From Schaalia meyeri (GTDB lineage: Bacteria > Actinomycetota > Actinomycetes > Actinomycetales > Actinomycetaceae), in assembly GCF_900105015.1 (NCBI RefSeq), contig NZ_FNLK01000012.1, forward strand, positions 385,749-417,748: a DNA stretch of 32,000 nt, given 5' to 3'. Within the stretch, counting starts at the first letter, position 1. The number at the start of each line of letters is the position of its first letter. Of the stretch, positions 2,165-25,127 are shown piece by piece. The translations under genes and the position numbers were made by a program. The notes beneath the pieces were generated by a model. The model saw nothing but the letters and a program-made list of their open reading frames with translations. It had not been told where the DNA came from and ran no database searches.

Positions 2165-2455
2165 TGTGCCAGGTGAGCGGGGCCTGGTTCAGGAATATAC
2201 GAGGCCGAGGCAGGTTCGATGATCAAGGTTTCACAAATAGGCCTGTCAAAAGTGTCACATCTTATGAAGCGGGCGGTTTGTCCAACCGCGCGGGCGTGCG
2301 AGTCGGTTCCGCTCCAGCGGGCGCGCATCCAAGCGAAACGCTCACTCCCATCCATGCGCCTGGGCGTGAGCAGTGAACTATCGCGAATAGCTCCATTCAT
2401 TGAGCGACCCACCACTTCGCTTGACATGTGTTTGGTCGATTTGTAGGTTGTGCTC

Positions 2456-2866
2456 GTGAGTGGGGATGTTGGCTTTGTTCCAGGGTCGCTGATTGAGGCG
2501 GCTTCGGGTGTTCAGGACGCGTGCGACCCGTTTGTTGAGTCGGTTTCTTCCTTGGGCGATGAGGTTGCTGGCTTGATTCCGGGTGTGAATGGTTCTTACG
2601 TGGAGCCGTTGAGCAGCTCGCTGGAGTTGTGGGGTGAGTCCTTGAAGGTCTTGTTCGATGATCTGGGCCGTTTGGTTGAGGCGCTGGTGGGGGTTGAGAA
2701 CTCGTTCGGAGCGTGTGAGAGTGAGATTGTTGCTTCGCTCATTCAGGCTGCCTCTGGTTATGGCGGGGATGGCGGGGATTCGTCGGGGGTAAATCCATTC
2801 GCTTCGGAGTTGGGTGGTGCCGGTGCTTCTGCTGGCAGGGGTGCTTCTGGTGCCTCGTCGGGGTGA
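2456..2866 (+). CDS. Small helical protein with a Gly/Ser/Ala-rich tail, first gene of the toxin operon (putative T7SS accessory/partner protein)
   Basis: ORF 2450-2866. The GTG at 2456 has better spacing from the AGG at 2445-2447. Same strand and tightly packed with the next three genes, with predicted helical composition. No family recognised by eye. Confidence 0.55.
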   Translation: MSGDVGFVPGSLIEAASGVQDACDPFVESVSSLGDEVAGLIPGVNGSYVEPLSSSLELWGESLKVLFDDLGRLVEALVGVENSFGACESEIVASLIQAASGYGGDGGDSSGVNPFASELGGAGASAGRGASGASSG

Positions 2867-2900
2867 GAGCCGTTTGAGAAGGTCTTGGGGGGGGAACGCT

Positions 2901-3200
2901 GTGAGTGGTGATTCGATGTTGGTGTTTCGTGAGGCGGACGCATCGGCGATGAGCGAGGTGTTCGCGAAGAAGGCGGCGTTAATGCGTGAGTTTGTGCCGG
3001 ATGTGCGCGATGGGGTCGTGAGTTCGGTGGGTGATTGGACTGGCGAAGCGCGTACTGCTTGTGATGCCGCGTTGGAGCGTTTGGTGGGGCGCGGGGAGGA
3101 GCTGGCCGATTTGTTACAGTCGGCTTCTGGCGCGATGGACGAGATCCGAGAAGCGGGCATTCATGCTGAGGCGATGGCGTTCGCGCATATCGATGGCTAA
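2901..3200 (+). CDS. WXG100-like small secreted/partner protein
   Basis: About 99 aa from GTG 2901, preceded by a G-rich RBS at 2887-2896. It has a central W-x-G motif (GDWTGEAR) between two helical halves, which is the size and architecture of Esx/WXG100 proteins. Confidence 0.7.
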   Translation: MSGDSMLVFREADASAMSEVFAKKAALMREFVPDVRDGVVSSVGDWTGEARTACDAALERLVGRGEELADLLQSASGAMDEIREAGIHAEAMAFAHIDG

Positions 3201-3212
3201 GGGAGCGAAGTG

Positions 3213-3551
3213 ATGAGCGATTTTGAGGTTGATCTGCAGGCGATGTCGTCTCTGGTGTCGTCGTTGTCTTCGTTTGAGGAGGCTGCCAAAGAGTATGACG
3301 TGGAGGATTGGGTCCCCAATTCGGGAATGCTCGACAATCCGGACGTGTGGAGTGTGACAAATTCGTTCCAGGACACTTGGGAGAAGGGCCTGAACGATTT
3401 GCGTTCGGATATTTCGGCCGCCAGCAGCGCCCTGGGTGGGGCGTTGGGCGCGTATGGGGAATATATGGAAAAGTCCAGCGAACTCATGCAGACAGTCGCC
3501 CAGGCTGCGTCTGACCTGGAGCAGTCTCCCGTTGTTGGTTCGGGGGCGTGA
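3213..3551 (+). CDS. Small helical protein (~112 aa), putative T7SS toxin partner
   Basis: ATG 3213 lies 7 nt after AAGGGAG. Helical, acidic, with a Ser/Ala-rich C-terminal half. It ends 6 nt before the toxin start. Confidence 0.6.
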   Translation: MSDFEVDLQAMSSLVSSLSSFEEAAKEYDVEDWVPNSGMLDNPDVWSVTNSFQDTWEKGLNDLRSDISAASSALGGALGAYGEYMEKSSELMQTVAQAASDLEQSPVVGSGA

Positions 3552-3557
3552 TTTGCT

Positions 3558-6500
3558 GTGGGCGTGAACGCTCAGGGTGCTCCTGTTTTCACGATTGGCG
3601 GCGATCCGGGTGGGATTCGCACGCGCGCCCAGGTGATGGCGGATCGGGCGGCGGAGTTCGCTGACGTGTATTCGGGCCTCACATCCCTGAAGTCTGACGG
3701 GTGGAAGGGGCGCGCGGCGGATCGTTTCCGTGAAAAGTTTAAGGTTCAGACCCAGGGGTGGATGGACGCGCAGACCGCGTTTTCGAGTGCCTCTGCGGCT
3801 TACCTGTCCTACGCCACCACGTTGGAGAACGCACAGAACCAGTTGCCCGGTATCCGGTCGCGGTGGGAGCAGGGCCGCGCCGCGGTCGAAGCGGCGCAGG
3901 CCAATCAGGACAGCGTTCGCAGCCAGGCCGCGTCCGCTGGCGTGCCCGCGGTGTTTGATTCTTCGTGTGACGAGGGGCCGGGCGAGGACGCCATGGCCGC
4001 AGCGCAGACGGATTTCAACACGCTGGTCGCCACTGTCAACGATGCGGGGAATCAACTGATCTCGGCGCTCAACGCGGGGATCGCGATGCTCCCCGAACGC
4101 ACATGGTGGGACGCTACCTGCCGCACGGTCGGCTCTGTGCTGGTTGGCTTCGTGGAAGCCGTCGCTGACTTGTTGAAGCTGGCATGCAAGCTTGGCGGTT
4201 TCGATACCGTATTTGATTTTGGGCGCATGCTGATGGGGGACATGTCTTGGGATGAGTACATGGCTAAGCACGCGTATCTTCCCACCGAAACCGTCACAGG
4301 TTTGGCCAAAGCGTTATGGCAGGACCCCATTGGTTTCATGAAGGGGCTTGGTAAGGCAGTTTTAGACTGGGATGCGTGGGCCGATGACCCTGGTCGAGCG
4401 ATCGGACACCTGCTCCCCGACGTGATCATCGCGGTAGCAACGGCAGGTACAGGCACAGGGGCATCCGCGGGCGAGAAAGCCGCATCAGGAGCGGCCCGCG
4501 CGGCTCGCGCGGCCCGCATCGGCCGCGAGGTTTTCAAAGCGATCCTGCCGGTCAACCCCGACGATATTCGCGCGGTATCTAAACTCGGTAAAAACCTGGT
4601 CGAAAAGCTCTCGAACCGCGGCATCAACACCACGGGCAGCGTCGCGCAGCTATGCAACGATGCAAAGAAGATGACGAGCGCCTTGAACATAGACCACGCG
4701 GCGGTCGGGACAAACAAGTTCGCGGGGGCATCCAACCTCACCGGGGACGCATCCCACGCTGGCCGGGGGGCTGACAATCTCGCGGGAGCCTACAACCTTG
4801 CGGGAGACACTTCACACGCAGGCCGGGGCACCAACAACCTCGCCAGTGCCTCCAACCTCGTCGGGGATACCACCCACGGTTCGAGCAACCTCTCCGGGGC
4901 CTCCAACCTCACCGGGGACGCCGCTCACGCAGGCAGGGGCACCAATGGCTTTAATGGGTCCTCCAACCTCGTCGGGGATGTCGCTCACGCTGGCCGGGGG
5001 ACTAGTGGTTCTTCGGGTGTCGCCGACACGGCCACGATGGCCGAGGCGTCGCGTGGTTCGCACGCGAATGGTTACGCTCATGCGCAAGTCGGCGGCGGCT
5101 CCTACGGTGGTGATACCGGCGTTCACGGTGCTTCATCCACCCACGCGCAGGGAGCCCACCACCCCGATGGCGGGATGCCCGCGAGGGATGTGCACGCCGG
5201 ATCACGCTCAGACTCCGCCGCCGGTTACAGCGACTCCCACCCGACGGCTTCCCACGACATCCAGAGTGCCCCCCGGGGTGCCTCCCACGACCCGTCCCAG
5301 GGCGGCTCCCGGGGTGCCTCCCGTGATGTGTCCAGCTCGGGCGGTCACGGCAATCAGCCGCAGAACTCCCACGCCGCACAGGGCGGGAACGCCTCTGGCG
5401 CAGAGCGGGGCTCGTCATCGAATGGTTCGTCTTCGAGTCAAGGACACCACGGATCCGGTCAGGGTACCCAGGGCGGCCCACAGCCCACCAACCCCGCAGC
5501 CCCCAAGCACCCCACAGGTGGGGACGCCGCTGCCCCGCAGCGCTCCCAGGCTGCGGTGAGCGGCGAGGCCCCGCGCGGCAGCGAGGCGGCCACGCCCAGC
5601 CAGGCCTCGCCCAAGCCCGCTGCAAAAACTCACGCGCCCGACGCTGACGCTCCACACGCTAAGGGGGACGCGTCCAAGCCTGCCCCCCAGGCGGAGCCAT
5701 CCAAGCCCGCACCCGACACCGACCGTGCTCACGCCAAGACCCACGAGCCCAGGTCCGCGCATCCCACCCAGGACTCCCCCACCAAGACCCGCGAGCCTGC
5801 GGGAAAGGGCGAGGTGAATGAAACACCCGTCGCGGCCGACAAGCCGACGACGGAGCACCACGCCGGAAACAAGCCTGGCTCGCACGCGGGCGAGAAGCGC
5901 TCGGGGCACGCAGCCGACACGGACAATAAAAACGCAAACAACTCGGCACACAAGCAAGAACCCGAGACCAACTCCGAGGCCAACCCTGGCGAACAAGCGC
6001 ACGAGGACGCCGCGAAGTCCAACAACACCAAGCAGACCACGCGCGACGACCCGACAGCTGACAAGCACGCCCCCAACGAGAAGGCAGAGGACCCCGCAGA
6101 CACCAAGACCCACGGCGATAAGGACGAGACAAGCACGCCCCCGGCGAAGGACAACGCGCACGATGCCAGGTCCGAGGCGGATAGCAGGCCCACCAAGAGC
6201 AGTGAGCCCGAGCCTGCGGAAAAGGGCGAGGTGAATGAAACACCCGCCACGGCCGACAAGCCGACAGACAAGACCCCCGCTGAGAACACCACGGCCGATA
6301 GGACAGACAAACACGCTTCCACCAGGCAGGCTAACGACGCAGCGGACGCGAAGCAACACGCCGACAAGGACGAGAAAACCAAGCCCGCCACGAAAGACAA
6401 CACGCACGAGGCATCGCCCGAAGCGGACAGCAAGCGTGCAGACGACTCGGCACACAAGCAAGAACCCGAGACCAACTCCGAGGCCAACCCTGGCGAACAA

Positions 6501-8039
6501 GCGCACGAGGACGCCGCGAAGTCCAACAACACCAAGCAGACCACGCGCGACGACCCGACAGCTGACAAGCACGCCCCCAACGAGAAGGGCGAAGAACCCG
6601 CAGACACCAAGACCCACGGCGATAAGGATGAGGCAGACAAGCAAGCCTCAGAAGATGGCACGCTCGACAAGAAGGATGCGGACACCACACGCCACGACGG
6701 CGATAACCTCGCCAAGGATCACGGCAGCGATCCCGACAAGGACAGCAGCCACCCCAAGGAAACCAACGACAAGTCCAACCGCCCCAACGATGGCGACACC
6801 TCGCAACCCGATGGCAAGGATCATCCGAAGACCAAGGAAACCCAGAAGGACAACTCCGCAACCAACACCAAGGACACTGACAACTCGAAGCACTCCAAGG
6901 AAGAGAACACACCCAAGCACGACAAGGATGCAGACCAACAGAAGGGTACCGACTCAACAGCAGACAAGCACGCCCGCAACGGACGGTCCGACGACGCCGC
7001 GGATCCAAAGCCACACCGTGACAAGGAAAAGGAAGAGGCAGGTTCATCTACCAAAGACCCCGACAGCGAGCATCCCGATGATTCTTCTCGAAAGAACAGC
7101 GCGTCCGAGTCCGCTGACGGCGACTCCAGCGATTCATCGCGCGATGAGCGCGGCACGGAGCACGGAGATCGTGACGCCGACGGCGATTCGGGCGAGCACG
7201 AAAGCTCCACGAGTGAAGGAGGCCAAGAGAGAAAGGAGTACGAGGATCTGCACGATCACTCGCACGATGGCCAGGCAGATCCCTCCTACGACCCCAGCGC
7301 TGATCCTCACACCAACTATGACGCGGATTACGACACCCCACCAGACCCATCCGTCGACCAGACCATCGGCTTCCCCGAGGGAGTCGACCCGTACACCACG
7401 CCACCCCGGACGCGCCGCCAGCTTCAGGAGGCACTGGAAGCCTGGCCAAACTACAGAAGAAAAGATCTCCCTCCAGACGCAAAGGACTGGCACACGGGCA
7501 GGTTCGGCTTCGACGACATGGTCAATCCCGAGCGCGCCCTGGGCTTCAATCCCGACGGATCTCCACGATCAATGAAGGACTTCATGGACACCTTCTTCGA
7601 CGAGAAGAAAGGCACTATGTGGCCATCCGATGTCCCCGGACAACGAAAGAGCGGCGCGCTCCTCAATGAGGACTACCATGAGTACGCCTCCATTCAACCT
7701 TTCATTGACGAGCACGGATCAGACCTGTGTCGAATCGGAGATCCCGAAGGTAAGTTCGCGGCCGCAATGCACAAGGACGGCTCCGTCCCATCGTTTGGCG
7801 AACGAGGATTGTTCCAGCCCTTCTCCCTGGGCGCACCGGATATGCGCGCACGCCTGACCGGATACCTTCCCGAGGGACACACCGTCAAATACGGCCAGGT
7901 CGCCCCCGCATTTGGCCAACCCGGAGGAGCAATACAGCTGCAGATTTGGGGACCCGAGGAAACAACAGGTAAAATGATAGAATTACCGTTAGAAACATGG
8001 AAGAAACGAGGAATCATTGAGTATGTCCAACACGATTAG
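3558..8039 (+). CDS. T7SS-type polymorphic toxin: WXG-like N-terminal secretion domain, hydrophobic/helical region, ~800-aa disordered linker and C-terminal TNT NAD+ glycohydrolase domain
   Basis: 1493-aa ORF. The N-terminus (GGDPGGIRTRA…DGWKGRAADRFREKF…YATTLENAQ) resembles the helical-hairpin secretion domain of actinobacterial polymorphic toxins. The C-terminus (LCRIGDPEGKF…FGERGL…VAPAFGQPGGAIQLQIW) carries the TNT signature FGQPGG.Q. Confidence 0.9.
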   Translation: MGVNAQGAPVFTIGGDPGGIRTRAQVMADRAAEFADVYSGLTSLKSDGWKGRAADRFREKFKVQTQGWMDAQTAFSSASAAYLSYATTLENAQNQLPGIRSRWEQGRAAVEAAQANQDSVRSQAASAGVPAVFDSSCDEGPGEDAMAAAQTDFNTLVATVNDAGNQLISALNAGIAMLPERTWWDATCRTVGSVLVGFVEAVADLLKLACKLGGFDTVFDFGRMLMGDMSWDEYMAKHAYLPTETVTGLAKALWQDPIGFMKGLGKAVLDWDAWADDPGRAIGHLLPDVIIAVATAGTGTGASAGEKAASGAARAARAARIGREVFKAILPVNPDDIRAVSKLGKNLVEKLSNRGINTTGSVAQLCNDAKKMTSALNIDHAAVGTNKFAGASNLTGDASHAGRGADNLAGAYNLAGDTSHAGRGTNNLASASNLVGDTTHGSSNLSGASNLTGDAAHAGRGTNGFNGSSNLVGDVAHAGRGTSGSSGVADTATMAEASRGSHANGYAHAQVGGGSYGGDTGVHGASSTHAQGAHHPDGGMPARDVHAGSRSDSAAGYSDSHPTASHDIQSAPRGASHDPSQGGSRGASRDVSSSGGHGNQPQNSHAAQGGNASGAERGSSSNGSSSSQGHHGSGQGTQGGPQPTNPAAPKHPTGGDAAAPQRSQAAVSGEAPRGSEAATPSQASPKPAAKTHAPDADAPHAKGDASKPAPQAEPSKPAPDTDRAHAKTHEPRSAHPTQDSPTKTREPAGKGEVNETPVAADKPTTEHHAGNKPGSHAGEKRSGHAADTDNKNANNSAHKQEPETNSEANPGEQAHEDAAKSNNTKQTTRDDPTADKHAPNEKAEDPADTKTHGDKDETSTPPAKDNAHDARSEADSRPTKSSEPEPAEKGEVNETPATADKPTDKTPAENTTADRTDKHASTRQANDAADAKQHADKDEKTKPATKDNTHEASPEADSKRADDSAHKQEPETNSEANPGEQAHEDAAKSNNTKQTTRDDPTADKHAPNEKGEEPADTKTHGDKDEADKQASEDGTLDKKDADTTRHDGDNLAKDHGSDPDKDSSHPKETNDKSNRPNDGDTSQPDGKDHPKTKETQKDNSATNTKDTDNSKHSKEENTPKHDKDADQQKGTDSTADKHARNGRSDDAADPKPHRDKEKEEAGSSTKDPDSEHPDDSSRKNSASESADGDSSDSSRDERGTEHGDRDADGDSGEHESSTSEGGQERKEYEDLHDHSHDGQADPSYDPSADPHTNYDADYDTPPDPSVDQTIGFPEGVDPYTTPPRTRRQLQEALEAWPNYRRKDLPPDAKDWHTGRFGFDDMVNPERALGFNPDGSPRSMKDFMDTFFDEKKGTMWPSDVPGQRKSGALLNEDYHEYASIQPFIDEHGSDLCRIGDPEGKFAAAMHKDGSVPSFGERGLFQPFSLGAPDMRARLTGYLPEGHTVKYGQVAPAFGQPGGAIQLQIWGPEETTGKMIELPLETWKKRGIIEYVQHD
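4713..5015 (+). repeat. Five tandem ~20-aa (≈60-nt) coding repeats, consensus NL.GASNL.GD.SHAGRGT.
   Basis: Read from the translation: ASNLTGDASHAGRGADNLAGAYNLAGDTSHAGRGTNNLASASNLVGDTTHGSSNLSGASNLTGDAAHAGRGTNGFNGSSNLVGDVAHAGRGTS. Confidence 0.8.
5941..6126 (+). repeat. Copy 1 of a ~186-bp near-identical in-frame direct repeat inside the toxin linker
   Basis: Encodes NSAHKQEPETNSEANPGEQAHEDAAKSNNTKQTTRDDPTADKHAPNEK.EDPADTKTHGDKDE. The second copy lies 504 nt downstream. Confidence 0.85.
6445..6630 (+). repeat. Copy 2 of the ~186-bp linker repeat
   Basis: Same sequence as 5941-6126 with a few substitutions. A second repeated motif, GEVNETP..ADKPT, occurs at 5811 and 6228 (offset 417 nt). Confidence 0.85.
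7724..8036 (+). other. TNT (NADase) catalytic core of the large toxin
   Basis: DLCRIGDPEGKFAAAMHKDGSVPSFGERGLFQPFSLGAPDMRARL…KYGQVAPAFGQPGGAIQLQIWG. The pattern matches the TNT family known from M. tuberculosis CpnT. Confidence 0.8.
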
Positions 8040-8568
8040 CGAAGATGAGTTCATCAGGACCCTCGTCCCCTTGCTTGACCGAGAAATTTACGTTGTCAGC
8101 GAGGACCACGTCAAGTTTCAGAGCAACGATCTCAATGTCATGATCCACACGTGGTACGAGGACGGTTTCTACTTCGGGGGCTCAAGCGAACGCCTCTCCC
8201 CCCCCGGCAGCTATCTGCGAGCGAACTCTCTTACCCCCGTGAAGCAGTGGCTAGCCATGCGCAACTTTGACCTACTGCGCTATTGCCTCGGCCTCGAGTA
8301 CTTTGACATCAGGTTTCGGGAGCTGCTGATCGCGCCGCACTGGTCCCACAGACGCGGCACTACCGACTATTCCGTTGAGCTGTGCCACAACGATCAACCC
8401 ACCGGCATCATCGTTGGCAAATCCTCCGACGAAGCCACCAACCTGACCTGGTTCCTCAACCACACACCCGAACGCCTCCTCGAAATCGCACACATCGAGG
8501 ACGTTGAGGAGGCCTGCCAGGCCCTCTTCGGAACCACACACATCCCATTCGGTGAGGACGACGACTGA
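8023..8568 (+). CDS. Putative TNT immunity protein, paralog 1 (181 aa)
   Basis: ATG 8023 lies inside the last 17 nt of the toxin ORF. The N-terminus MSNTISEDEFIRTL is shared by three paralogs in the window. Its position corresponds to the IFT immunity gene next to CpnT. Function is inferred from context only. Confidence 0.75.
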   Translation: MSNTISEDEFIRTLVPLLDREIYVVSEDHVKFQSNDLNVMIHTWYEDGFYFGGSSERLSPPGSYLRANSLTPVKQWLAMRNFDLLRYCLGLEYFDIRFRELLIAPHWSHRRGTTDYSVELCHNDQPTGIIVGKSSDEATNLTWFLNHTPERLLEIAHIEDVEEACQALFGTTHIPFGEDDD

Positions 8569-8613
8569 CACGCGCAGACCTACCACCCATTCAAGAAACA
8601 CAGTGAACCACCA

Positions 8614-8643
8614 GGGACTATTCAATATGTCCAACACGATTAG
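8614..8643 (+). pseudogene. Relic of a TNT toxin 3' end (…GTIQYVQHD*) fused upstream of and overlapping immunity paralog 2
   Basis: gggactattcaatatgtccaacacgattag matches the last codons of the toxins ending at 8039 and 13025 (GIIEYVQHD*, GIIQYVQHD*). Confidence 0.7.
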
Positions 8644-9190
8644 CGAAGATGAGTTCATCCGGACTCTCGTCGCCCCGCTTCATCGAGACGTCACGGTAGT
8701 TAGCGAGGAGCACGTGTGGTTTCGGAGCAACGATCTCAATGTCATGATCCACGCGTGGCGCAAAGGTAACTCCTACTTGGGCGGGTCAAGCGAACGCCTC
8801 TCTCCCCCCCCCCCCGGCACCTTCGTATGGTCTCATTCTCTTACCCCGGTGAAGCAGTGGCTCGTCATGTACAACTTTGACCTACTGCGAGCTTACCTCG
8901 ACCTCAAACCATTTGACATCAGTTTTCGAGAACTGCTGATCGCGCCGAACTGGTCCCACCGACCCGGCCCCAATCAGTACTCCCTCGAACTGTGCCACAA
9001 CGATCAGCCCACCGGCGTCTTTGCAGGCAAATGGTCCGACGAAGCCACCAACCTGACCTGGTTCCTCAACCACACACCCGAGCACCTCCTCGAAATCGCA
9101 CACATCGAGGACGTTGAGGAGGCCTGCCAGGCCCTCTTCGGAACCCCACACATCCCATTCGCGCCACATAAACGACCGACGCACGCGTAG
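8627..9190 (+). CDS. Putative TNT immunity protein, paralog 2 (187 aa)
   Basis: Begins MSNTISEDEFIRTL and is collinear with paralog 1. It contains a C12 tract (8804-8815) encoding SPPPPG. It is preceded by a remnant of a toxin 3' end. Confidence 0.75.
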   Translation: MSNTISEDEFIRTLVAPLHRDVTVVSEEHVWFRSNDLNVMIHAWRKGNSYLGGSSERLSPPPPGTFVWSHSLTPVKQWLVMYNFDLLRAYLDLKPFDISFRELLIAPNWSHRPGPNQYSLELCHNDQPTGVFAGKWSDEATNLTWFLNHTPEHLLEIAHIEDVEEACQALFGTPHIPFAPHKRPTHA

Positions 9191-9279
9191 GAGAAAGACA
9201 TGCTACGGGAAGAGTTTCTAGACATCACCAAGAGTCTATTAACAGAGCACAATATGAGTGCGGTATAGACGAGCAGGAG

Positions 9280-9612
9280 TTGAGACTTAGTATTCCCTCC
9301 GGCCCTTCAACTTTCTGCACACGCAGCAGTAAGGCTCCTTCCTCGTCGGCGCAGCCCGTTGCCTGTTACACCGCAGATGACACACCCGACAAGAAGGAAG
9401 CGAACGCCACCCGCCACGACGGTGATAACCACGCCAAGGAGCACGGCAGCAACCCCGACAAGGACAGCGACCGCCCCAAGGACACCGACGGCGACGGCAA
9501 CTCCGACAAGGATTCGGTCGAACGTAAGGATGCTGACCCCAAGGCGGAGGACTACTCCGCCAATGGCAAGGCCGATGACGCCGACGCGCACAAGACCACC
9601 GAAGACGCCCCG
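9280..9612 (+). pseudogene. Linker-like 5' portion of an orphan toxin cassette (frame 1), separated from the ART domain by a 1-nt frameshift
   Basis: Encodes …DDTPDKKEANATRHDGDNHAKEHGSNPDKDSDRPKD…. Nucleotides 9388-9482 match toxin linker 6665-6759 at 83/95 positions by hand alignment. The frame then shifts at the C4 run at 9608-9611. Confidence 0.65.
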
Positions 9613-9821
9613 AGGCCAAGGCCGACGACGCCGATACTAAGTCCGCTGCTTCAGACGGACATGGTTCGGGCGATGGCCACGGTGATGGGGAGCGCCCCCT
9701 CACCAAGGAGGAAATTGAAGCGCTCCCGCAAGCTCCTGGGCGCAGAGCGAGCGCGGAAGAGCTCGACGCGTGGCTGGACGCATGCATCGAGCAGAATCCG
9801 GATCTGACGCGTCAAGAGCTA

Positions 9822-10286
9822 ATGGCTGCCTACGACTACTCAGGTCCGCAATATAAGGAGATCAACGGCTGGCTTCGTGACCCATCAATGGCTGTCTCGG
9901 CCGATATCCCCGAGACAGTTGAGACCCTCAATAAATTCCTCGACAGGTTGCCACCACATAACGGCAGAGTATACCGAGGAACGAAGGTGCCTGGACACAT
10001 TCTCGACGAGGCACTCCGTACCGGTGTCTACCGCGACCCTGCATTCTTCTCAAGCAGCACAAAGCCCGGCGTTGCAGAGAAGTTCATGAATTCAGGCGCA
10101 CTCGACCCCGGAGACAGACGAGTCCTGTTCGAGATTGAAAGCGCTTCGGGTTCAAACATCCGCCCAATGTCTATGTTTGCCACACAAGACGAAATCCTTT
10201 TTAAATCCGGACTTGAGTTTAAGATTGAAAAATGGACGGAACATGCAGACGGAAGTTACACCATCAAACTAAGGCAGAGAGAGTAG
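9822..10286 (+). CDS. ADP-ribosyltransferase toxin domain (C3/VIP2-like R-S-E ART), orphan C-terminal module
   Basis: Motifs seen: YDYSGPQYKEINGWLR, RVYRGT (Arg), FFSSST (S-x-S) and ATQDEILFKSG (Q-x-E). The frame is open upstream to 9579, but the first start codon is ATG 9822. Confidence 0.8.
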   Translation: MAAYDYSGPQYKEINGWLRDPSMAVSADIPETVETLNKFLDRLPPHNGRVYRGTKVPGHILDEALRTGVYRDPAFFSSSTKPGVAEKFMNSGALDPGDRRVLFEIESASGSNIRPMSMFATQDEILFKSGLEFKIEKWTEHADGSYTIKLRQRE

Positions 10287-10295
10287 GATGCAGTT

Positions 10296-11183
10296 ATGCC
10301 CATCGCTGTGAATGGAAACGTTAACAGAGCGCAGTTGTGGCTTGCCGACCACCACTGGTGGGATTACCCAGAGATCTGGAAGCTCCCTAAGCGGCCCGAG
10401 GACGGCCAGCTCGACTGGGAGCGCCTCTTTCCACACCAGCGTGACGTCATCCGCCGTTTCTCAGCCACGCTCCGCACATTATCGGGCTTACCTGCGGTGT
10501 TGCCTTCGATCCCCTACCAGCCTTTCGGGACCCCGAGCCCGCAGGGCTGGGTCATGCCTATCAGATCCGGCACACGCGGTGAGCTTCGTTACGGCGAGTG
10601 CAGCTTTGAGGGCTCTATTCTCTCCCATCACCCCATCCGAGGGACCGACACGTTCGCGCTCCTCATCTATCCAGGCCGGATCAATCCCTGGTTTGTCATC
10701 CGCGCAGACGGACACCCCTGGCACACCAATCCATGGGCAAACAACACGCGAGTGGGGTCCATCTGGGTGCGCACTCTTGCCTGGCAGCACACCTCTCATC
10801 AGATTCTGCCATTCACCGAGGTAGCCGTTCCGCCGCGGACTGTGACTACGCAGCTGCGCACGATCTACATGGAGCGGAACCCCGACGATCCTGACCTGTA
10901 CGGCTCGCTCACAGAGCTACCGACACCGGTGGACGAACGCATCGAGGTTCGAGATGTCCCCGTGTGGTGGAAAGAACCAGAGTACCTCCTGTGGAAGCGC
11001 TTCCTTCAGCCCGAACCGGGAAATCCGGACTCCTATTGGAACGGTCCCAACACTCTCGACGAGCGCACCGCTTACGAGTGCATCATCCAATACGCAGGCC
11101 TGCTCCGCGATTGGACATCGCCTTACGTCCCCTCGCCCGACTTCATTGAACGCTTTGACTGGAAACCACGGGAGGAATCATGA
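10296..11183 (+). CDS. Hypothetical Trp-rich 295-aa protein, candidate immunity protein for the ART module
   Basis: ATG lies 6 nt after AGGA and 9 nt after the ART stop. No recognisable family. Function is inferred from position only. Confidence 0.6.
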   Translation: MPIAVNGNVNRAQLWLADHHWWDYPEIWKLPKRPEDGQLDWERLFPHQRDVIRRFSATLRTLSGLPAVLPSIPYQPFGTPSPQGWVMPIRSGTRGELRYGECSFEGSILSHHPIRGTDTFALLIYPGRINPWFVIRADGHPWHTNPWANNTRVGSIWVRTLAWQHTSHQILPFTEVAVPPRTVTTQLRTIYMERNPDDPDLYGSLTELPTPVDERIEVRDVPVWWKEPEYLLWKRFLQPEPGNPDSYWNGPNTLDERTAYECIIQYAGLLRDWTSPYVPSPDFIERFDWKPREES

Positions 11184-11683
11184 ACGAAGATAGCATCAAG
11201 AGTTTTTTAGCTCTTCTCGAGTCACTGCCGCCGACCCCCTCGGTTACCTTCCGCGGATATGTCGACACTTCCATCACGGAGCCGCGTGCGATCTCATCTC
11301 CCATTCTCACGGCAACATCGCATAGCATTTCCATTGCGACAAACAACCTGGAGATTCCGCAGATCGCTATTTTTATCGGCCAGAATGGACGAGACCTAAG
11401 CAACCTCATGATGGGTGCTCCCTCTTTCAATCTCGAAGAGGTCACCTACATGCCCGGATCCTACTTCTACCAGCATCCAGCACAGGAGTTCCTCGGAGTG
11501 ACAATCCAGCTTTACGAGGAAATGCGCCTGACCGAAGGAGGAAAGAGCCTCACCCCTACCCGTGTACTCGACTCCTGGACACCCATTCTCATTGAGTTTG
11601 AGCCTGCGCTCCGCGCTGCTCGTAGCCAGCGCGTCGAACTACCCGAAGGGGCATCAGAACGTTTTCTCATTCCCGTGGGGTAA
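11180..11683 (+). CDS. 167-aa protein with a divergent ART-like fold signature (possible second, N-terminally short ART module)
   Basis: ATGA overlap with the upstream stop, and a GGAGGA RBS. LESLPPTPSVTFRGY aligns with LDRLPPHNGRVYRGT of the neighbouring ART, ILTATSHS with FFSSSTK, and NLEEVTYMPGS with TQDEILFKSG. Confidence 0.55.
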   Translation: MNEDSIKSFLALLESLPPTPSVTFRGYVDTSITEPRAISSPILTATSHSISIATNNLEIPQIAIFIGQNGRDLSNLMMGAPSFNLEEVTYMPGSYFYQHPAQEFLGVTIQLYEEMRLTEGGKSLTPTRVLDSWTPILIEFEPALRAARSQRVELPEGASERFLIPVG

Positions 11684-12022
11684 CGTTTCAACACGAAGGG
11701 AAGCAGCGCTGACGGACCACTAGCTGTTCGACGAACGATGTCATCATCGACTATCTCACCCGACGATCGGCCAAACGGAACGTCACGCTGCACGCCCCTG
11801 CTGGTCGCCACGGCAGCCAGCCAGAGCACACACAGCTCGTAACAGCTGGCTGCACTCGCTCCTTCGGGGCACATCTCGAGCACGCGCCGCACACACCGAA
11901 CACCACGCATTCCCGACGGTACGGACCTGCACGCACCGGGTGTCCAACGAGAGAGGCATTCAAGTACAGGACGACGCTCCATACTGAAGACACCGGCATG
12001 TCAACCACGGGAGGATGTGATC

Positions 12023-12663
12023 ATGGACGTACTTGAGCAGCTGATCGAACGGGCGAAAAGCTTCGGCGTCTCTGCCGACCTCATCGGCGACAACGACTGC
12101 GTCTTCGGATACGAGGCGTCAATGAGTCAGCACTTTTGGATTGACGATCGGCAGTATCACTTCGGCTCCGACGAGAGAGCAACCACCTACTCCTCGCGCA
12201 TGTGGACGTCTTAGCCTCAACCCTCTCCCTGGAGGATATCGTCGCACCTACTCCTCGCGCATGTGGACGTCTTAGCCTCAACCCTCTCCCTGGAGGATAT
12301 CGTCGCACCTACTCCTCGCGCATGTGGACGTCTTCTCCTGACATCGCACCCCTGGCTCTCATCGACCTTGTTGGCTCCCTCTACCGAATGGCTGCAGGTT
12401 ACCGACGGAGCGACATGGACTACGGGTGGCGCTCCTTCCCCGTTGGCTGGACGATCCAACGAGTGGCGGGATACTCCTCTATGCGCATCGCTTCCGAGAG
12501 CCGGCCCGAGTTGAGCTACGACACCAACGAAATCCATCAGTACTTGCATATCCGCTCGCTCACCATCTATCCGGTTAAGACAGTGCTCGACATGTTCTTC
12601 GACCCCGAAGCGCCCCCTCTCGGCACTCGGGCTTACATTCACAACTTCTATGATCGTGTCTAG
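12023..12663 (+). pseudogene. ORF split by a 61-bp tandem repeat; would be ~172-174 codons if the two extra units were removed
   Basis: The 5' part (MDVLEQ…DERATTYSSRMWTS*) stops inside repeat unit 1. The same peptide, …TYSSRMWTS-SPDIAPL…, resumes in the frame shifted by 122 nt. A W..D..Y.FG..ER motif loosely resembles the immunity paralogs. Confidence 0.6.
12184..12334. repeat. 61-bp tandem repeat, 2 full units plus a 29-bp partial unit
   Basis: Units start at 12184, 12245 and 12306 and are identical by eye: cacctactcctcgcgcatgtggacgtcttagcctcaaccctctccctggaggatatcgtcg. Confidence 0.9.
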
Positions 12664-13025
12664 TGAGCGAAGACTGGTATCGGCATGTCGTTCGAGATGG
12701 TCACTCCACTGATTTATGCAGACTCAAAGATCCCGGTGGAAAGTTCGCTGCAGCAATGCACAAAGATGGAACACCGTCCTCTTTTGGCGAACGGGGATTG
12801 CATCCCTTCTCCCTAGGGGCACCAGATATGCGTGCACGCCTAACAGGCAAACTTCCTGATGGTTGCATTGTTAAATATGGTGAAGTAGCTCCAGCATTTG
12901 GCCGGCCCGGTGCTGCTATACAGCTACAGATTTGGGGACCCGACAAAATGACGGGTATACTCAGAGAGTTGACACTGAGAGAGTGGGAAAAGCGGGGAAT
13001 CATTCAATATGTCCAACACGATTAG
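12663..13025 (+). CDS. Orphan TNT (NADase) core module, 120 aa, lacking any N-terminal secretion domain
   Basis: GTG 12663 overlaps the upstream TAG. Collinear with the last ~120 aa of the large toxin (DLCRLKDPGGKFAAAMHKDG…VAPAFGRPGAAIQLQIWG…GIIQYVQHD*). Lower GC codons than the main copy. Confidence 0.75.
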   Translation: MSEDWYRHVVRDGHSTDLCRLKDPGGKFAAAMHKDGTPSSFGERGLHPFSLGAPDMRARLTGKLPDGCIVKYGEVAPAFGRPGAAIQLQIWGPDKMTGILRELTLREWEKRGIIQYVQHD

Positions 13026-13554
13026 CGAAGATGAGTTCATCCGCACTCTCGTCCCCTTGCTTGACCGAAAGATTTACGTTGTCAGCGAGGACCACGTCAA
13101 GTTTCAGAGCAACGATCTCAATGTCATGATCCACGTCTGGTACGAGGACGGTTTCTACTTCGGGGGCTCAAGCGAACGCCTCTCGCCTCCCAGCACCTAC
13201 CTGCGTGCAGATTCTTTAACCCCGGTGAAGCAGTGGCTCGTCATGGACAACTTTGACCTACTGCGATATTGCCTTGATCTCAAACCATTTGGCATCAGTT
13301 TTCGAGAACTGCTGATTGCACCACACTGGTCCCACAGACCCGGCACTACCATCTATTCCGTTGAGCTGTGCCACAACGATCAGCCCACCGGCGTCTTCAC
13401 AGGCAAGTGGTCCGACGTTGCCACCAAGCTGACCTGGTTTCTGAACCACACGCCCGAACGCCTCCTCGAAATCGCACACATCGAGGACGTCAAGGAGGCC
13501 TGCCAAGCCCTCTTCGGAACCACACACATCCCCTACAGCAAAAACTACGACTGA
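13009..13554 (+). CDS. Putative TNT immunity protein, paralog 3 (181 aa)
   Basis: ATG lies inside the last 17 nt of the orphan TNT ORF. It shares the MSNTISEDEFIRTL N-terminus and is collinear with paralogs 1 and 2. Confidence 0.8.
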   Translation: MSNTISEDEFIRTLVPLLDRKIYVVSEDHVKFQSNDLNVMIHVWYEDGFYFGGSSERLSPPSTYLRADSLTPVKQWLVMDNFDLLRYCLDLKPFGISFRELLIAPHWSHRPGTTIYSVELCHNDQPTGVFTGKWSDVATKLTWFLNHTPERLLEIAHIEDVKEACQALFGTTHIPYSKNYD

Positions 13555-13604
13555 CACGCGGCAGACCCGCCACCTGTCAAGTTCTGGATTTTGTGGAGGG
13601 GCGT

Positions 13605-14412
13605 TTAGGGCGTTTCTTTTCGTGGTGCTGTGTGTTGGTTTTCTGCTTGTTGTGGTGTGATGCCGCCTATTGCGAGGGGGAGGCGGTAGGTGTGGTACCA
13701 GTGGACCCAGGCTGAGGTTTCGCGTTCAACTTTCACGTTGGTCGTGCCAGGGACCGGCGTAGCGGGGGCGCGCCTTGTTGTGGATAAGTTCAGCTTTGTA
13801 CACGGAGTTCAATGCTTCAGCTAGGGCATTGTCGTAGGAGTCGTCCCTGGAGCTCGCCGAGTCTGCCGCCTTGCGCTGGGCTAGTGCTTGCCCGTAGCGC
13901 ACGTCGTCGATATTGGACACCCTGGTCGGAATGGTGCACGAGCCCGCTGGTGTCCATGCCCTCGCGGCAGCGCTGGTAGATCGCCATGTTCAAGGTATCC
14001 AGGGCCAGGTCGGCACGCAGCGAGAAAGAGACCTTCCACCCCAGGATTTTGCGCGAGTACACGTCGGTGACGAAGGAGACGTAGACCCAGCCGACCCGGT
14101 TGGCACGTAGGTAATGTCCGCGCCCCACAACTCGTTGAGATCATGGGCAGCGAAACGACGATTCACCAGGTCTGCTGGGCATGCCCGCCTCGGTGCCGGG
14201 GCCGTGACATGGCGGGCCCGGCACCGGCTCACACCGCGAATTCCCATACGCCGCATCAGCCGCTCAACCGTGCACCGCGCGACATGCCCCACGCCGGTAT
14301 CTGGTCGGTTAGGAAAGCATGCATTTGACGCAAGATACTCCCCACCATACCCGGGACACTTCAACACCCAAGTGAAACCCACACCGCCCCTGCTCGGGTA
14401 TAACTCCCACAA
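13605..14412 (-). pseudogene. IS3-family transposase OrfB (DDE integrase core), broken by several frameshifts; OrfA not seen
   Basis: Fragments lie in three frames: …VARCTVERLMRRMGIRG…ADLVNRRF…LWGADITYVPT, then …GWVYVSFVTDVYSRKILGWKVS…HHSDQGVQY, then …DSYDNALAEALNSVYKAELIH, then …ERETSAWVHWYHTYRLPLAIGGITPQQAE*. Confidence 0.8.
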
Positions 14413-14652
14413 TCGGGGGTTTTTCGGACCGCCGGGGCGACTCCGGTTTCAATCCGGAGAGTCGCATCAAGGTTATGGGGCGGGCTTGTACGCTGACGGG
14501 ACTGCCCACGTCCGCCTGAGCGGGTTAGCGCGCGCCTTACCGTGTTCACGCGCACCCCAGCGGATGCGGGTTAAGCGCAATCACCTAACAACAGGCTGTC
14601 TAGCCCGCGCAAGCCACCAGGGCGAGAACGCGCAGCACACGCGAGCCCCGCA

Positions 14653-14771
14653 CCTGGATAGGAAACAGCCTCCTGGATAGGAAACGGCCACCTGGATAGG
14701 AAACGGCCACCTGGATAGGTTAATAACCTATCCACGAGCGCATAACCTATCCAGCAACACACTTCCTATCC
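14653..14771. repeat. Array of seven GGATAGG/CCTATCC sites at strict 19-bp spacing (4 direct, 3 inverted), symmetric about GGATAGGTTAATAACCTATCC
   Basis: CCTGGATAGG starts at 14653, 14672, 14691 and 14710. CCTATCC starts at 14727, 14746 and 14765. Confidence 0.85.
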
Positions 14772-15179
14772 ATGAACCAGCCACAAAAAGGCAGCGGAGC
14801 ACCAGCAGCGGAGTCGGACCACTGCAAGGTTGACGGTGCCGCGAAAAACGGCGCACAACCCCGGCCAGCACGCGGCACCTGATCCCACGCGGACCGACAG
14901 CGAAAACAGCGACTACACCCAGGAGAAATCCAGCAGCAGACCACGAGCCCGAACGGGCCGACACCCGCGGGCACCACAACGCGCACACCCCAGGAACCTC
15001 CCCACACCACCAAACCACCAAACCACAAAGCCACAAAGCCACCCTTCCAACAACACACGGCGTCCTATAACCCCAAAGACCTCCACCTCTACCGCAACCC
15101 ACGACCAAAACCCGATCACCCACACTCAACTCGGAAGATCCTCTATGAGCTTATTTTCGAGGCAGATGAACCAGGGTTC

Positions 15180-15503
15180 ATGACCCAGGCGCGCGGATCG
15201 GGACTCACTCTTTACGAAATTGCCAGCAAGATGGAGAGACGACGGGAGCTGGCCGATCGCATGGCCGCCTATCTCGACAGGGACCTGACACAATGTCACG
15301 CGTTCACACTCGATACAGGGAGAACTAACGATGCCACCACTTATTTTCGCAATGCAGGCGGCTGTATTGTTTCTCGTAAGATCATTGAAGGAAAGGGGGC
15401 ATCAAGTCGCTCCCAGAGCCCTCAGCCAACCCCGCCGACAACGGTTGGCGCGTCTTACCTGACCGCGATGACGACGCTTACCTCGCCGATCCGAACAACC
15501 TAA
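15180..15503 (+). pseudogene. Part of a decayed cassette gene lying upstream of and across the ISL3 insertion site
   Basis: The frame is open far upstream of ATG 15180 through a CA-rich P/K/T/H/N-rich stretch. The N-terminal half of the ORF looks protein-like, and the C-terminal half becomes low-complexity after a G5 run at 15395-15399. The frame-2 reading continues across the IS target site. Confidence 0.4.
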
Positions 15504-15506
15504 CGG

Positions 15507-16942
15507 GGCTCTTCATAATTGAGGGTGTGGGGGTGGTATGCGGGGTTCGGTGTGTCGTGGCCGGGTAGGGGTCGAGGTCTTCCGATGATGGGGGTTCCTA
15601 CACCGTCCATCCGAAAGACCTCGACATGTCCAATGCTACCTTTGGTCGCCCTGACCTGAGCGCCTTCACGGGCCTGGATGACCTAGGACTGGAAGTGATG
15701 GGTCAGCGTGTAGGAGGCGATCGGACCGTCTTGGCCTGCAAGGTAGTGGGTGAGGATCGGTGGTGCCGACAGTGTGGGGGCGAGGGCGTCGTACGCGACA
15801 CGGTGATCAGGCGCTTGGCTCACGTACCCTACGGGTGGCACCCCACCATGTTGCACGTGAGCGTGCGCCGCTACCGCTGCCAGACGTGTGCTCACGTGTG
15901 GCGTCAAAACATGAGTGCAGCAGCCGATCCGCGCGCGAAGCTCTCGCGCGCAGCGGTGCGCTGGGCGCTGGTGGGCCTGGTGGTCCACCATCTGACGGTG
16001 GCGCGCATCGCCGACGTATTGGCCGTGTCATGGAACACTGCCAATACCGCGATCTTAGGTGAAGGCCAGCGCATACTCATCGATGATCCTGATCGTTTCG
16101 AGGGAGTGTGCGTCATCGGTGTTGATGAGCACGTGTGGCGCCACACCCCTTACGGCGACAAATACGTCACCGTCATCTTGGACTTGACTCCTATACGAGA
16201 CCGTCGTGGTCCCTCCCGGCTCCTGGATATGGTCCCAGGCCGCTCCAAGCAGGTCTTCAAAACCTGGCTCTCTTCCCAGCCCGACACGTGGCGCGAGAAC
16301 ATCGAGGTCGTAGCGATGGATGGATTCACCGGGTTCAAAAGCGCAGCCGCTGAAGAACTCTCAGACGCAACCGCGGTCATGGACCCCTTCCACGTCGTAC
16401 ACCTTGCCGGTGATGCTCTCGATGAGTGTCGCAGGCGCATCCAGCAAGAACTCCACCACCGGCGTGGGCGTGCCACCGATCCCCTGTACAAGGCCCGCAG
16501 AATGTTACACACCAGATCCTGCCTGCTCACCCCGCGCCAACAACACCGGATCCTCGACCTGTTCGCCAGCGATTGCCACGTCGCCCTCGAAGTCACCTGG
16601 AGCGTCTACCAGAGTATTATCGACGCCTACCGCGATCCCAATAAAATCCGCGGTAAGGCCCTGATGCAAGCCGAAATAGACCGTCTCAGCAACGCGGGTG
16701 TCCCTCGCTCCCTCACGGAGATCATCACACTGGGAAGAACGCTCAAACGCCGATCCCGGGACATCCTGGCTTACTTCGATCATCCACACACCAGCAACGG
16801 TCCTACCGAAGCGATCAACGGACGTCTCGAACACCTACGCGGATCCGCACTCGGGTTCCGAAACCTCACCAACTACATCACCCGCTGCCTCCTCGAAACA
16901 GGAGGATTCAGACCCCAACTACACCCTCAATTATGAAGAGCC
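15507..16942 (+). mobile_element. Intact ISL3-family insertion sequence (1436 bp)
   Basis: Perfect terminal inverted repeats GGCTCTTCATAATTGAGGGTGT (15507-15528 and 16921-16942). 8-bp target-site duplication CCTAACGG (15499-15506 and 16943-16950). Single transposase ORF. Confidence 0.92.
15626..16936 (+). CDS. ISL3-family transposase (436 aa)
   Basis: N-terminal Cys-rich zinc-finger region (CRQCG…CQTCAH) followed by a DDE domain (GVDEH…AMDGF…NGPTEAINGRLEHLR), typical of ISL3/IS204/IS1001-type enzymes. Confidence 0.95.
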   Translation: MSNATFGRPDLSAFTGLDDLGLEVMGQRVGGDRTVLACKVVGEDRWCRQCGGEGVVRDTVIRRLAHVPYGWHPTMLHVSVRRYRCQTCAHVWRQNMSAAADPRAKLSRAAVRWALVGLVVHHLTVARIADVLAVSWNTANTAILGEGQRILIDDPDRFEGVCVIGVDEHVWRHTPYGDKYVTVILDLTPIRDRRGPSRLLDMVPGRSKQVFKTWLSSQPDTWRENIEVVAMDGFTGFKSAAAEELSDATAVMDPFHVVHLAGDALDECRRRIQQELHHRRGRATDPLYKARRMLHTRSCLLTPRQQHRILDLFASDCHVALEVTWSVYQSIIDAYRDPNKIRGKALMQAEIDRLSNAGVPRSLTEIITLGRTLKRRSRDILAYFDHPHTSNGPTEAINGRLEHLRGSALGFRNLTNYITRCLLETGGFRPQLHPQL

Positions 16943-16950
16943 CCTAACGG

Positions 16951-17216
16951 TTCTTGATTTCAATGTGATTTCAATGTTCTCTGTGACATTGAGCCCGCCT
17001 GCATCGGCATCTACGACCTGCCCGTCGGCTCCGACATCCAGCTCGTTGTCGAACCCGACGGTCGCCGCCGCTGGTTCGACAACCACACCGAACGCGAAAT
17101 CACCTGCCGGTAAGGGCAGGGCTGCGCAACGACGCACGCCCACTCACTCAACCTGCCCGGGTGCGCTCAACCCGCCGAGGCGCACCCTGGAGCGATTCTT
17201 AATCCCCGTGGGTTAG
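16951..17216 (+). pseudogene. 3' remnant of the IS-disrupted, frameshifted cassette gene, ending …ERFLIPVG*
   Basis: The last 8 residues are identical to the C-terminus of the 167-aa ORF (11180-11683). An alternate frame gives protein-like DIEPACIGIYDLPVGSDIQLVVEPDGRRRWFDNHTEREI. Confidence 0.4.
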
Positions 17217-21011: not shown

Positions 21012-21076
21012 GCGGCCATATTAGCACGGGTAATAACCATATATTGCGTATGACGGAGACCACTCACCGTCAGCCA

Positions 21077-21100
21077 ATTTAGATCTATATTTAGATCTAT
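21077..21100. promoter_or_regulatory. Tandem 12-bp repeat ATTTAGATCTAT x2, each holding the 8-bp palindrome TAGATCTA; candidate operator in the R-M divergent promoter
   Basis: Read directly. It ends 11 nt before the methyltransferase ATG. Each unit contains an AGATCT (BglII-type) site. Confidence 0.6.
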
Positions 21101-21111
21101 TTGGTACTAAA

Positions 21112-21972: not shown

Positions 21973-22007
21973 CGCAGACGATCCGAAAGCCGTGCTCACG
22001 GCCCAAC

Positions 22008-24491: not shown

Positions 24492-24501
24492 CGGGCGCGG
24501 G

Positions 24502-25101: not shown

Positions 25102-25127
25102 GCGGATGTAACTCCCTTCGTGTTGCA

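Follow-up and report, generated by a model that had tools for sequence, protein, structure and literature searches.

The 32,000-nt stretch of Schaalia meyeri DNA analyzed here (contig NZ_FNLK01000012.1; the window) carries a polymorphic toxin locus, in which a gene for a predicted type VII secretion system (T7SS) toxin and its candidate immunity gene are followed by an array of orphan toxin and immunity genes. The window was laid out by open reading frame (ORF) listing, Pfam and blastn, and compared with related loci, among them Logan contigs from public read sets; loci are labeled L### and proteins P####. The array at 8569-13554 that a preliminary description had placed behind the main toxin-immunity pair is confirmed, and all of its homology tracts reproduce by blastn. 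The island is bounded by an Abhydrolase_9 gene and a methyltransferase gene and has a GC content of 56-58%, compared with 67-69% in the flanks. The gene layout is identical in the closed genome CP066065.1 and in independent Logan contigs and is therefore not an assembly artefact; L004, L005 and L007 cross the 9374/9375 junction considered below. The window and CP066065.1 differ at only two sites in 20 kb, both homopolymers: G8 versus G9 at 2887-2894 and C12 versus C11 at 8804-8815.

Three small helical, WXG100-like genes on the forward strand (2450-2866, 2901-3200 and 3210-3551), which related loci also conserve ahead of their toxin, lie upstream of the expressed toxin gene (3558..8039, forward strand). 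The 1493-aa toxin consists of a T7SS signal, a linker and a TNT domain. The helical signal domain of a T7SS substrate is found at its N terminus as a match to PF21725, the 'putative T7SS secretion signal' (nt 3594-4097, residues 13-180; 73.5 bits with a cut-off of 27, 3.3e-20). The linker, at about 4700-7500, is of low complexity and repetitive, with internal repeats. The TNT NAD+-glycohydrolase-type domain (PF14021) ends the toxin at about 7518-8036; its Pfam match is borderline (21.9-26.8 bits, the latter for the isolated domain, with a cut-off of 27) and its match to the M. tuberculosis TNT structure 4qlp_B is firm (E = 2.7e-13 over 150 residues). The main TNT tip is complete. The PF21725 domain and the conserved small partner genes suggest that the toxin is exported by a T7SS. 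Linkers in Schaalia and Actinomyces toxins run to 800-2000 residues rich in D, K, T, H, A and G, for total lengths of 1158 to more than 2035 aa (L009, L015, L019); PF21725 toxins of Nocardioides and other genera have 530-580 aa and are almost free of linker.

The 181-aa immunity candidate 1 (8023..8568, forward strand) was assigned from its position, its overlap with the toxin gene and its co-inheritance with TNT in L019 and L109. Its ATG sits within the final 17 nt of the toxin gene, and an exact look-up gave a match from ATG 8023 and none from a TTG start. The protein has no match in Pfam, NCBIfam, PADLOC or the PDB. Paralog 2 (8614..9190, forward strand, ATG 8627), found by alignment, is preceded by GGGACTATTCAATATGTCCAACACGATTAG (8614-8643), which is the last 9-10 codons of the toxin plus a stop; an immunity paralog carrying toxin 3' codons had been part of the preliminary description, and it is there. 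A C-run at 8804-8815 of paralog 2 is C12 and in frame in the window and C11 and frameshifted in CP066065.1; the difference may reflect slippage, as an on/off switch, or a sequencing error. An exact look-up of paralog 2 gave no match. The 181-aa paralog 3 (13009..13554, forward strand) is 83% identical to paralogs 1 and 2. blastn aligned 8620-9161 with 8016-8551 at 82.5% and 8620-9156 with 13002-13532 at 83%, and a third alignment, of 12728-13574 with 7739-8587 (83% over 853 nt), takes in the TNT 3' part, the immunity gene and about 20 nt downstream. The conserved stretch after paralogs 1 and 3, GACTGACACGCG.CAGACC, is real as first noted and extends for only those 20 or so nucleotides. The 17-nt overlap, the placement of the gene directly 3' of the tip and co-inheritance of this order across species point to the 181-aa proteins as predicted immunity proteins of TNT.

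A displaced former toxin tip lies behind paralog 2 (9375..10286, forward strand) and comprises a linker fragment to about 9608, a frameshift at 9609-9612, a pre-toxin region and an ADP-ribosyltransferase (ART) domain of the R-S-E type at 9822-10286. The segment 9375-9490 aligns by blastn with 6653-6768 of the main linker at 85% identity (99/116, gapless). Within it, the 83/95-nt match counted earlier is exact, except that 6665 pairs with 9387 and not with 9388, an offset of 1 nt. The ART module with a linker fragment and no secretion domain is present as described, with the correction that a -1 frameshift in the C4 run at 9609-9612 parts the fragment from the ART frame. The linker fragment is in frame 1; the ART is in frame 0, which is open from about 9582, its first start codon being ATG 9822. 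With one C added to the C4 run, linker fragment and ART form a single ORF. Pfam assigns 9822-10286 to ART (2e-10) and ADPrib_exo_Tox (3e-10), with 40.8 and 40.2 bits for PF01129 and PF03496 against cut-offs of 22.3 and 23.4. The translation contains the ART motifs YRG, SSST and QDE, and PDB matches are to Vis (4e-14) and Tre1 (7e-8). A dN/dS of 2.8 for the 44-codon stretch preceding the ART is based on too few sites to be of use.

The ART is followed on the forward strand by the genes for a 295-aa protein, p295 (10296..11183), and a 167-aa protein, p167 (11180..11683). These had been listed as a separate unit, an unassigned ORF with a second ART-like ORF, but they are conserved partners of the ART domain: ART tips in Peptidiphaga, Ancrocorticia and Actinobaculum are followed by homologs of both, and p295 and p167 belong to the ART cassette. 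The p295 family is tiny, with 16 relatives among 1.8 billion representatives, and follows ART tips only in Actinomycetaceae (L018, L022, L024, L035). No match to p295 was found in the PDB, Pfam, NCBIfam or PADLOC, and its AlphaFold2 model (pLDDT 52) gave no fold match. It may be a second immunity protein or a chaperone. p167 is a free-standing ART-fold protein by hhalign, which paired it with the ART domain (97.7%, E = 2e-12) with the R, S-T-S (STS) and E positions aligned. Relative to the toxin ART, p167 keeps these residues, lacks the N-terminal helices and has gained a conserved LPEGASERFLxP tail; the family motifs are TFRG, TATSHS, EVTY and this C-terminal sequence. The p167 AlphaFold2 model is poor (pLDDT 52), and its top Foldseek matches in the PDB are weak but all ARTs (Tre1, XopAI, Vis and C3), so the fold search is supportive only.

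A hidden Markov model survey located a p167-family ORF 0-900 nt downstream in 23/23 loci with an ART tip on a PF21725 N terminus, and three further loci (L019, L072, L075) have p167 without any ART. The 9687-11761 block is 85% identical to a sister species, against which dN/dS is 0.25 for p295 and 0.15 for p167. Three features make p167 the probable cognate immunity protein of the ART tip: where it lies, its persistence as a lone gene and the low dN/dS. The literature searched contained no description of an immunity protein with an ART fold.

The next feature is a small orphan gene (12023..12663, forward strand), 172 aa when intact, that is broken by two extra units (12184-12305) of a 61-nt tandem repeat spanning 12184-12334. 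Deletion of these 122 nt restores the 172-aa ORF from ATG 12023. No extra copy is present in L098, one is present in L096 and L099, and two are present in the window; the ORF is also intact in L102-L104. Each 61-nt unit combines 29 nt duplicated from the target with a 32-mer unique within the window. A homolog of the 172-aa gene adjoins the main tip in L015 and L018. The repeat behind the earlier call of a repeat-disrupted ORF is real, and the proposed toxin unit is instead this free-standing gene. We also considered ORF 12202-12663 as the N-terminal half of the orphan TNT and rejected it; it is the 3' part of the separate 172-aa gene, whose homologs in L015 and L018 lie elsewhere. The orphan TNT 3' part (12663..13025, forward strand; Pfam TNT 5e-6, 27.2 bits) begins at the stop codon of the 172-aa gene, with homology to the main TNT from 12728. 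The orphan TNT core and third immunity paralog of the preliminary description are both in place, but only the last 107-120 codons of TNT are kept. The region matching 4qlp_B residues 42-106, the N-terminal third of the fold, is missing, and the remnant is not a complete catalytic domain. Rfam and tRNA scans gave no match in the region 8569-13554.

Comparison with Logan revealed a second allele of the toxin gene. Clustering at 90% identity groups the 154-aa ART ORF with proteins of 987-1158 aa that start with the window toxin N terminus MGVNAQGAPVFTIGGDPGG, share the window linker for about 830 residues and then pass through ...DDTPDKK...TEDAPETKAD... in frame into the ART. These ART-tip loci (allele A; L102-L108, proteins P0135-P0146) come from seven samples. 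The suggestion that recombination had swapped the expressed tip, as in Rhs and contact-dependent inhibition (CDI) arrays, is borne out by these loci, in which the N terminus and linker are fused in frame to the ART; the opposite outcome, in which no ART or alternative TNT tip occurs on this N terminus and the homology fails on alignment, is contradicted by the ART-tip assemblies and the tracts. Where the contigs reach (L103, L104), the gene order in allele A is the WXG-like partner genes, the 1158-aa toxin (PF21725 plus ART), p295, p167, the intact 172-aa gene, the orphan TNT and an immunity gene. At 98.9% identity, the stranded tip of the window matches the 3' end of the gene for the 1158-aa toxin. 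A single residue of the ART domain differs between the expressed and stranded copies, and the sole indel is C4 versus C5. The C4 run occurs in the window, six orphan-type contigs and both genome assemblies; the C5 run is in frame in 5/5 allele-A contigs checked. Both alleles co-circulate in public read sets from human samples. In ART-tip strains the TNT immunity gene is represented only by a copy 87% identical to it, and TNT-tip strains keep the ART immunity candidates.

Alignment of L103 with the window defines the breakpoints. Positions 1-4724 of L103 correspond to window 1391-6139 at 97% identity and 4730-7568 to window 9375-12212 at 98.9%. The net extra DNA in the window is 6140-9374, a 3235-nt segment in which a second linker unit and the TNT are followed by a pair of immunity genes and a further 185 nt. 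The two alleles differ by 1-2% as far as about 5760 and by about 15% beyond it, with the jump at 5763; from there the window has donor-type linker, with one extra 504-nt repeat unit. The block that differs from the ART-tip allele by the L103 alignment, the divergence jump and 32 nt private to allele A is thus 5760..9374 (forward strand). The left crossover was homologous and inside the linker, because divergence jumps at about 5760. The right junction, 9374/9375, has no detectable homology. The private 32 nt of allele A lie at the junction and occur in the window only as a 78% homolog at 6643-6674, and the allele A linker is only about 85% identical to window 5760-6768.

With a probability of about 85%, the array is the product of a recent tip replacement in the window lineage. 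In the ancestral resident gene, a T7SS-type N-terminal domain would have been joined through a long repetitive linker to an ART tip, with p295 and p167 behind it. A foreign cassette of diverged linker, TNT and two tandem immunity genes would then have recombined into the linker, by a homologous crossover at about 5760 on its left and a non-homologous join at 9374/9375 on its right. The toxin gene would have come to end in TNT, its old 3' end being pushed downstream without a start codon or secretion domain, and after displacement the stranded ART would have lost one C from the C5 run. The leftovers farther downstream that are shared with ART-tip strains would be older: the repeat-broken small gene, the 5'-truncated TNT with its immunity gene, and immunity genes damaged by an insertion sequence (IS).

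The anatomy was observed directly, as were both alleles, their breakpoints and the frameshift; the direction of the event, from ART-tip allele to window allele, we infer from three sequence arguments. Allele A has its private 32 nt, its linker is not that of window 5760-6768, and the sister species has an ART tip at the syntenic site. In the sister-species locus, L009, one frame runs from the N terminus through about 1300 linker residues to a 100-N scaffold gap before the ART; the same repeat peptide flanks the gap on both sides, and the frame change across it equals 100 mod 3. The apparent duplication of 116 nt is best read as the donor and recipient versions of the same linker position and not as a local duplication. 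Derivation of allele A from the window allele by a crossover in the 116-nt tract was also considered and is rejected by the private 32 nt and the linker divergence.

Several observations weigh against a T7SS toxin gene with a recently replaced tip. The only sources of allele A are short-read Logan contigs, 5.8-19 kb in length and running across the repetitive linker; no closed genome with it was seen. The doubt that these contigs are chimeric is countered by nine that encode the identical 1158-aa protein and by the private sequence of the allele. No homolog of 9191-9374 was found outside the window allele, and no donor more than 90% identical to the whole inserted block was found. The 32-kb window holds no T7SS core gene of the EccC/EssC type. 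The WXG100 matches of the 2901-3200 product fall below the curated cut-offs (17.6 bits against 27.3 in Pfam; 25.3 against 44.85 for TIGR03930), and a promoter and terminator scan was at chance level only.

Related cassettes occur elsewhere. The same island of another species (L109-L112) has a start-less unit of linker, TNT and two tandem immunity genes that is 86% identical to window 6869-9160 over 2298 nt; the tandem immunity pair is seen in L109. This cassette adjoins ISL3 copies (L109 1-496 and 7977-8583) 89-96% identical to the ISL3 element of the window (15494-16955), and IS elements may move cassettes between species. L109 also has, at 786-12000, a long run of small genes with repeated Imm61-like 167-aa and 148-155-aa genes that resembles a poly-immunity array. 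In the metagenome-assembled genome L019, the TNT type of the window is apparently the tip, with one frame change in the linker, and is followed by the matching immunity gene and the lone p167. The tip is a TNT variant in L015 and an ART in L009. S. odontolytica UMB0018 has another TNT variant as its tip (Pfam 32.9 bits) and carries the window TNT type, frameshifted and with a linker fragment, as an orphan. All that Actinomyces sp. HPA0247 retains of the ART is its final 47 codons, placed between an immunity gene, which they directly follow, and p295. Synonymous divergence (dS) from the sister species is 0.73-0.93 in flanking housekeeping genes; the ART block is lower, at 0.35-0.42, and the partner genes and N terminus are higher, at 1.4-2.3. 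The parts of the island therefore have different histories.

The preliminary description had regarded the array as a substrate for toxin switching, a library from which homologous recombination through the retained tracts could restore an ART or alternative TNT end. The tracts are there, at 85% over 116 nt and at 83%, the ART is one residue from a functional tip with its partner genes intact, the frame would be regained by a single +1 slip at the C4 run, and both alleles circulate together. This use of the array is nonetheless unlikely. Exact matches reach only 15 nt in the linker tract and 17 nt in that of the TNT, the frameshift is fixed in every orphan-type contig examined, and a crossover in the linker tract would yield a protein that stops at 9807. 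The orphan TNT is short of one third of its domain, and such a crossover did not give rise to allele A. The toxin pieces appear to be decaying and to be badly suited to a reverse switch; the orphans are leftovers that an incoming cassette displaced and not a ready reservoir. Decay of everything in 8569-13554, immunity genes included, is improbable to the same degree. It would account for the ART frameshift, the truncated TNT, the repeat-broken ORF, the IS damage beyond and the C11/C12 difference that breaks paralog 2 in one assembly, but paralogs 2 (in the window) and 3, p295 and p167 are full-length, dN/dS is low for both ART partners, and p167-family genes survive alone in other genomes. Orphan immunity genes are also protective in other systems (PMC10539506). 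The intact orphan immunity and ART partner genes are probably still useful, and the immunity genes would protect against neighbors carrying matching toxins.

Two other origins are improbable to a still greater degree. Expression of the 154-aa ART ORF with p295 and p167 as an intracellular toxin-antitoxin-like module could draw on ATG 9822, with a weak AAGAG upstream, and on an ORF that is intact and called as a gene in every assembly. This is very unlikely: Met 9822 is internal in the full-length toxins of allele A and the sister species, the ART frame is open for 240 nt upstream without a start codon, and the secretion domain is absent. Least probable, by a little, is that the paralogs arose here by tandem duplication and divergence without foreign import. 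The repeats are direct and in the same orientation, and the tandem immunity pair, the second with toxin 3' codons, resembles a local duplication. However, the copies are 82-85% identical in a species whose strains differ by 1-3%, the same two-immunity cassette is found in another species, donor-type and allele-A linkers differ by about 15%, and dS differs between island parts and flanks. Tip replacement by an incoming cassette is the preferred reading. Rearrangement that continues after replacement would most likely be deletion or gene conversion between immunity paralogs and not proceed through the toxin tracts, since the three paralogs share exact runs of 63, 61 and 42 nt (the 63-nt run joins paralogs 1 and 3) and mosaic sites. 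Paralogs 1 and 3 agree at informative sites 35:7 in the first 200 nt and 21:25 beyond, with a best-breakpoint p of 3e-4 that becomes about 0.03 once corrected.

The locus has the hallmarks of polymorphic toxins: a shared N-terminal part with differing tips (TNT in the window, ART in P0135/P0136), orphans downstream (the start-less ART cassette at 9375-11683, the TNT remnant at 12663-13025 and immunity paralogs 2 and 3), and a replaced tip in the comparison of allele A with the window (an excess of 3235 bases, junctions that could be mapped, and linker of the donor type from about 5760 on). Cassette displacement in polymorphic toxins generally, including actinobacterial WXG-type T7SS toxins with Tox-ART-RSE, is described by Zhang et al. 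2012 (PMC3482391). As in the model given there and in CDI cdiA-CT/cdiI and Rhs rhs-CT/rhsI, a constant 5' trafficking part is joined to a variable 3' tip with a predicted immunity gene; as in the CDI and Rhs orphans, displaced tips lack a start or secretion part and retain a piece of upstream sequence, and strings of immunity genes are remnants of earlier tips. Unlike CDI and Rhs, the N terminus is of T7SS type (PF21725), the host is an actinobacterium, and recombination took place in a low-complexity linker hundreds of residues long and not at a VENN or PxxxxDPxGL-type motif, with a non-homologous right junction. Pfam detected no CdiA/CdiB, Rhs/YD-repeat, VENN or PxxxxDPxGL domain in the toxin. 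The locus works like CDI and Rhs systems without being a member of either.

The locus also shares features with known T7SS and ART toxin systems. As in the T7SSb LXG loci of Bacillota (EsaD/EsaG, TelC/TipC; Garrett et al. 2022, PMC9484751), non-identical immunity paralogs stand in tandem with conserved blocks that permit recombination, and deletion or gene conversion between immunity genes is described there for esaG and tipC. The phylum and the toxin N-terminal family are different, and there are only three paralogs, interleaved with toxin remnants. Like CpnT/TNT-IFT of M. tuberculosis and the Eat loci of M. abscessus and other Actinomycetota (PMC13444075), the locus has small helical partners upstream, a helical N terminus, a C-terminal toxin and a predicted immunity gene downstream. 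TNT is among the commonest toxin families of Actinomycetota Eat-type loci (PMC13444075). The predicted immunity protein, unlike that of CpnT/TNT-IFT, has no detectable similarity to any solved structure, and the toxins, with 1158-2035 or more residues owing to the linker, exceed the 400-1000 residues of Eat proteins. The main text of PMC13444075 makes no mention of orphan cassettes, polymorphism, recombination or tip replacement. Tre1-Tri1 of Serratia and Bxa-Bsi-BAH of Bacteroides (PMC11699363) likewise have an R-S-E arginine-ART-like domain, and Bxa also has two downstream partner genes; in contrast to these systems, neither partner here matches an ADP-ribosylhydrolase, and p167 is itself ART-fold. 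Two features go beyond the known template: recombination in the linker, with homology at one junction only, and a partner protein of ART fold. We tentatively propose, as a joint reading that may well fail in one of its halves, that p167 could be the cognate antidote of the whole actinobacterial T7SS ART-toxin clade, derived from the toxin fold, and that the Schaalia linker could be a landing pad for one-sided, homology-anchored cassette insertion.

Beyond the array, the degraded end of the island (13817..17110, no strand assigned) contains an rve fragment on the reverse strand (13817-14128; Pfam rve 2.8e-12), then three to four copies of a 19-nt tandem repeat, CACCTGGATAGGAAACRGC (14651-14719), between that fragment and the ISL3 element. 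tblastn with sister-species genes identified, at 15111-15275, what is left of a 181-aa gene, and also an Imm33-like gene that ISL3 splits into pieces at 15336-15502 and 16958-17110. The ISL3 element has inverted repeats at 15494-15540 and 16909-16955 and a transposase match of 357.7 bits. Between the Imm33 remnant and the methyltransferase gene, 17190-17216 encodes ...ERFLIPVG and a stop, the C-terminal motif of the p167 family, and is probably the last relic of another p167-type gene. A near-perfect palindrome occupies 20818-32000, its arms 20818-25280 and 27538-32000 being 100% complementary, with further inner arms and a center at about 26410. It duplicates an 847-aa ABC/ECF transporter gene and a thiamine pyrophosphate (TPP) riboswitch (25133-25234, reverse strand; 27584-27685, forward strand). 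The window stops inside the right arm, so the palindrome may extend further. The palindrome could be a recent inverted duplication or an assembly artefact. An exact look-up of an ORF within it gave no match.

Antibacterial T7SS toxins of Actinomycetota were shown experimentally only recently, in mycobacteria (PMC13444075, 2026). At this locus, a human oral commensal shows what would be a very recent tip replacement, with its breakpoints mapped and a donor-like cassette in another species. The analysis also flags an uncharacterized ART-fold partner family that is present with every ART tip examined. If the replacement took place as proposed, the two S. meyeri alleles would be a natural and tractable pair for watching T7SS tip replacement and its ecological consequences. 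They make it testable whether TNT-tip strains kill ART-tip strains, how fast stranded tips decay and whether orphan immunity genes protect.

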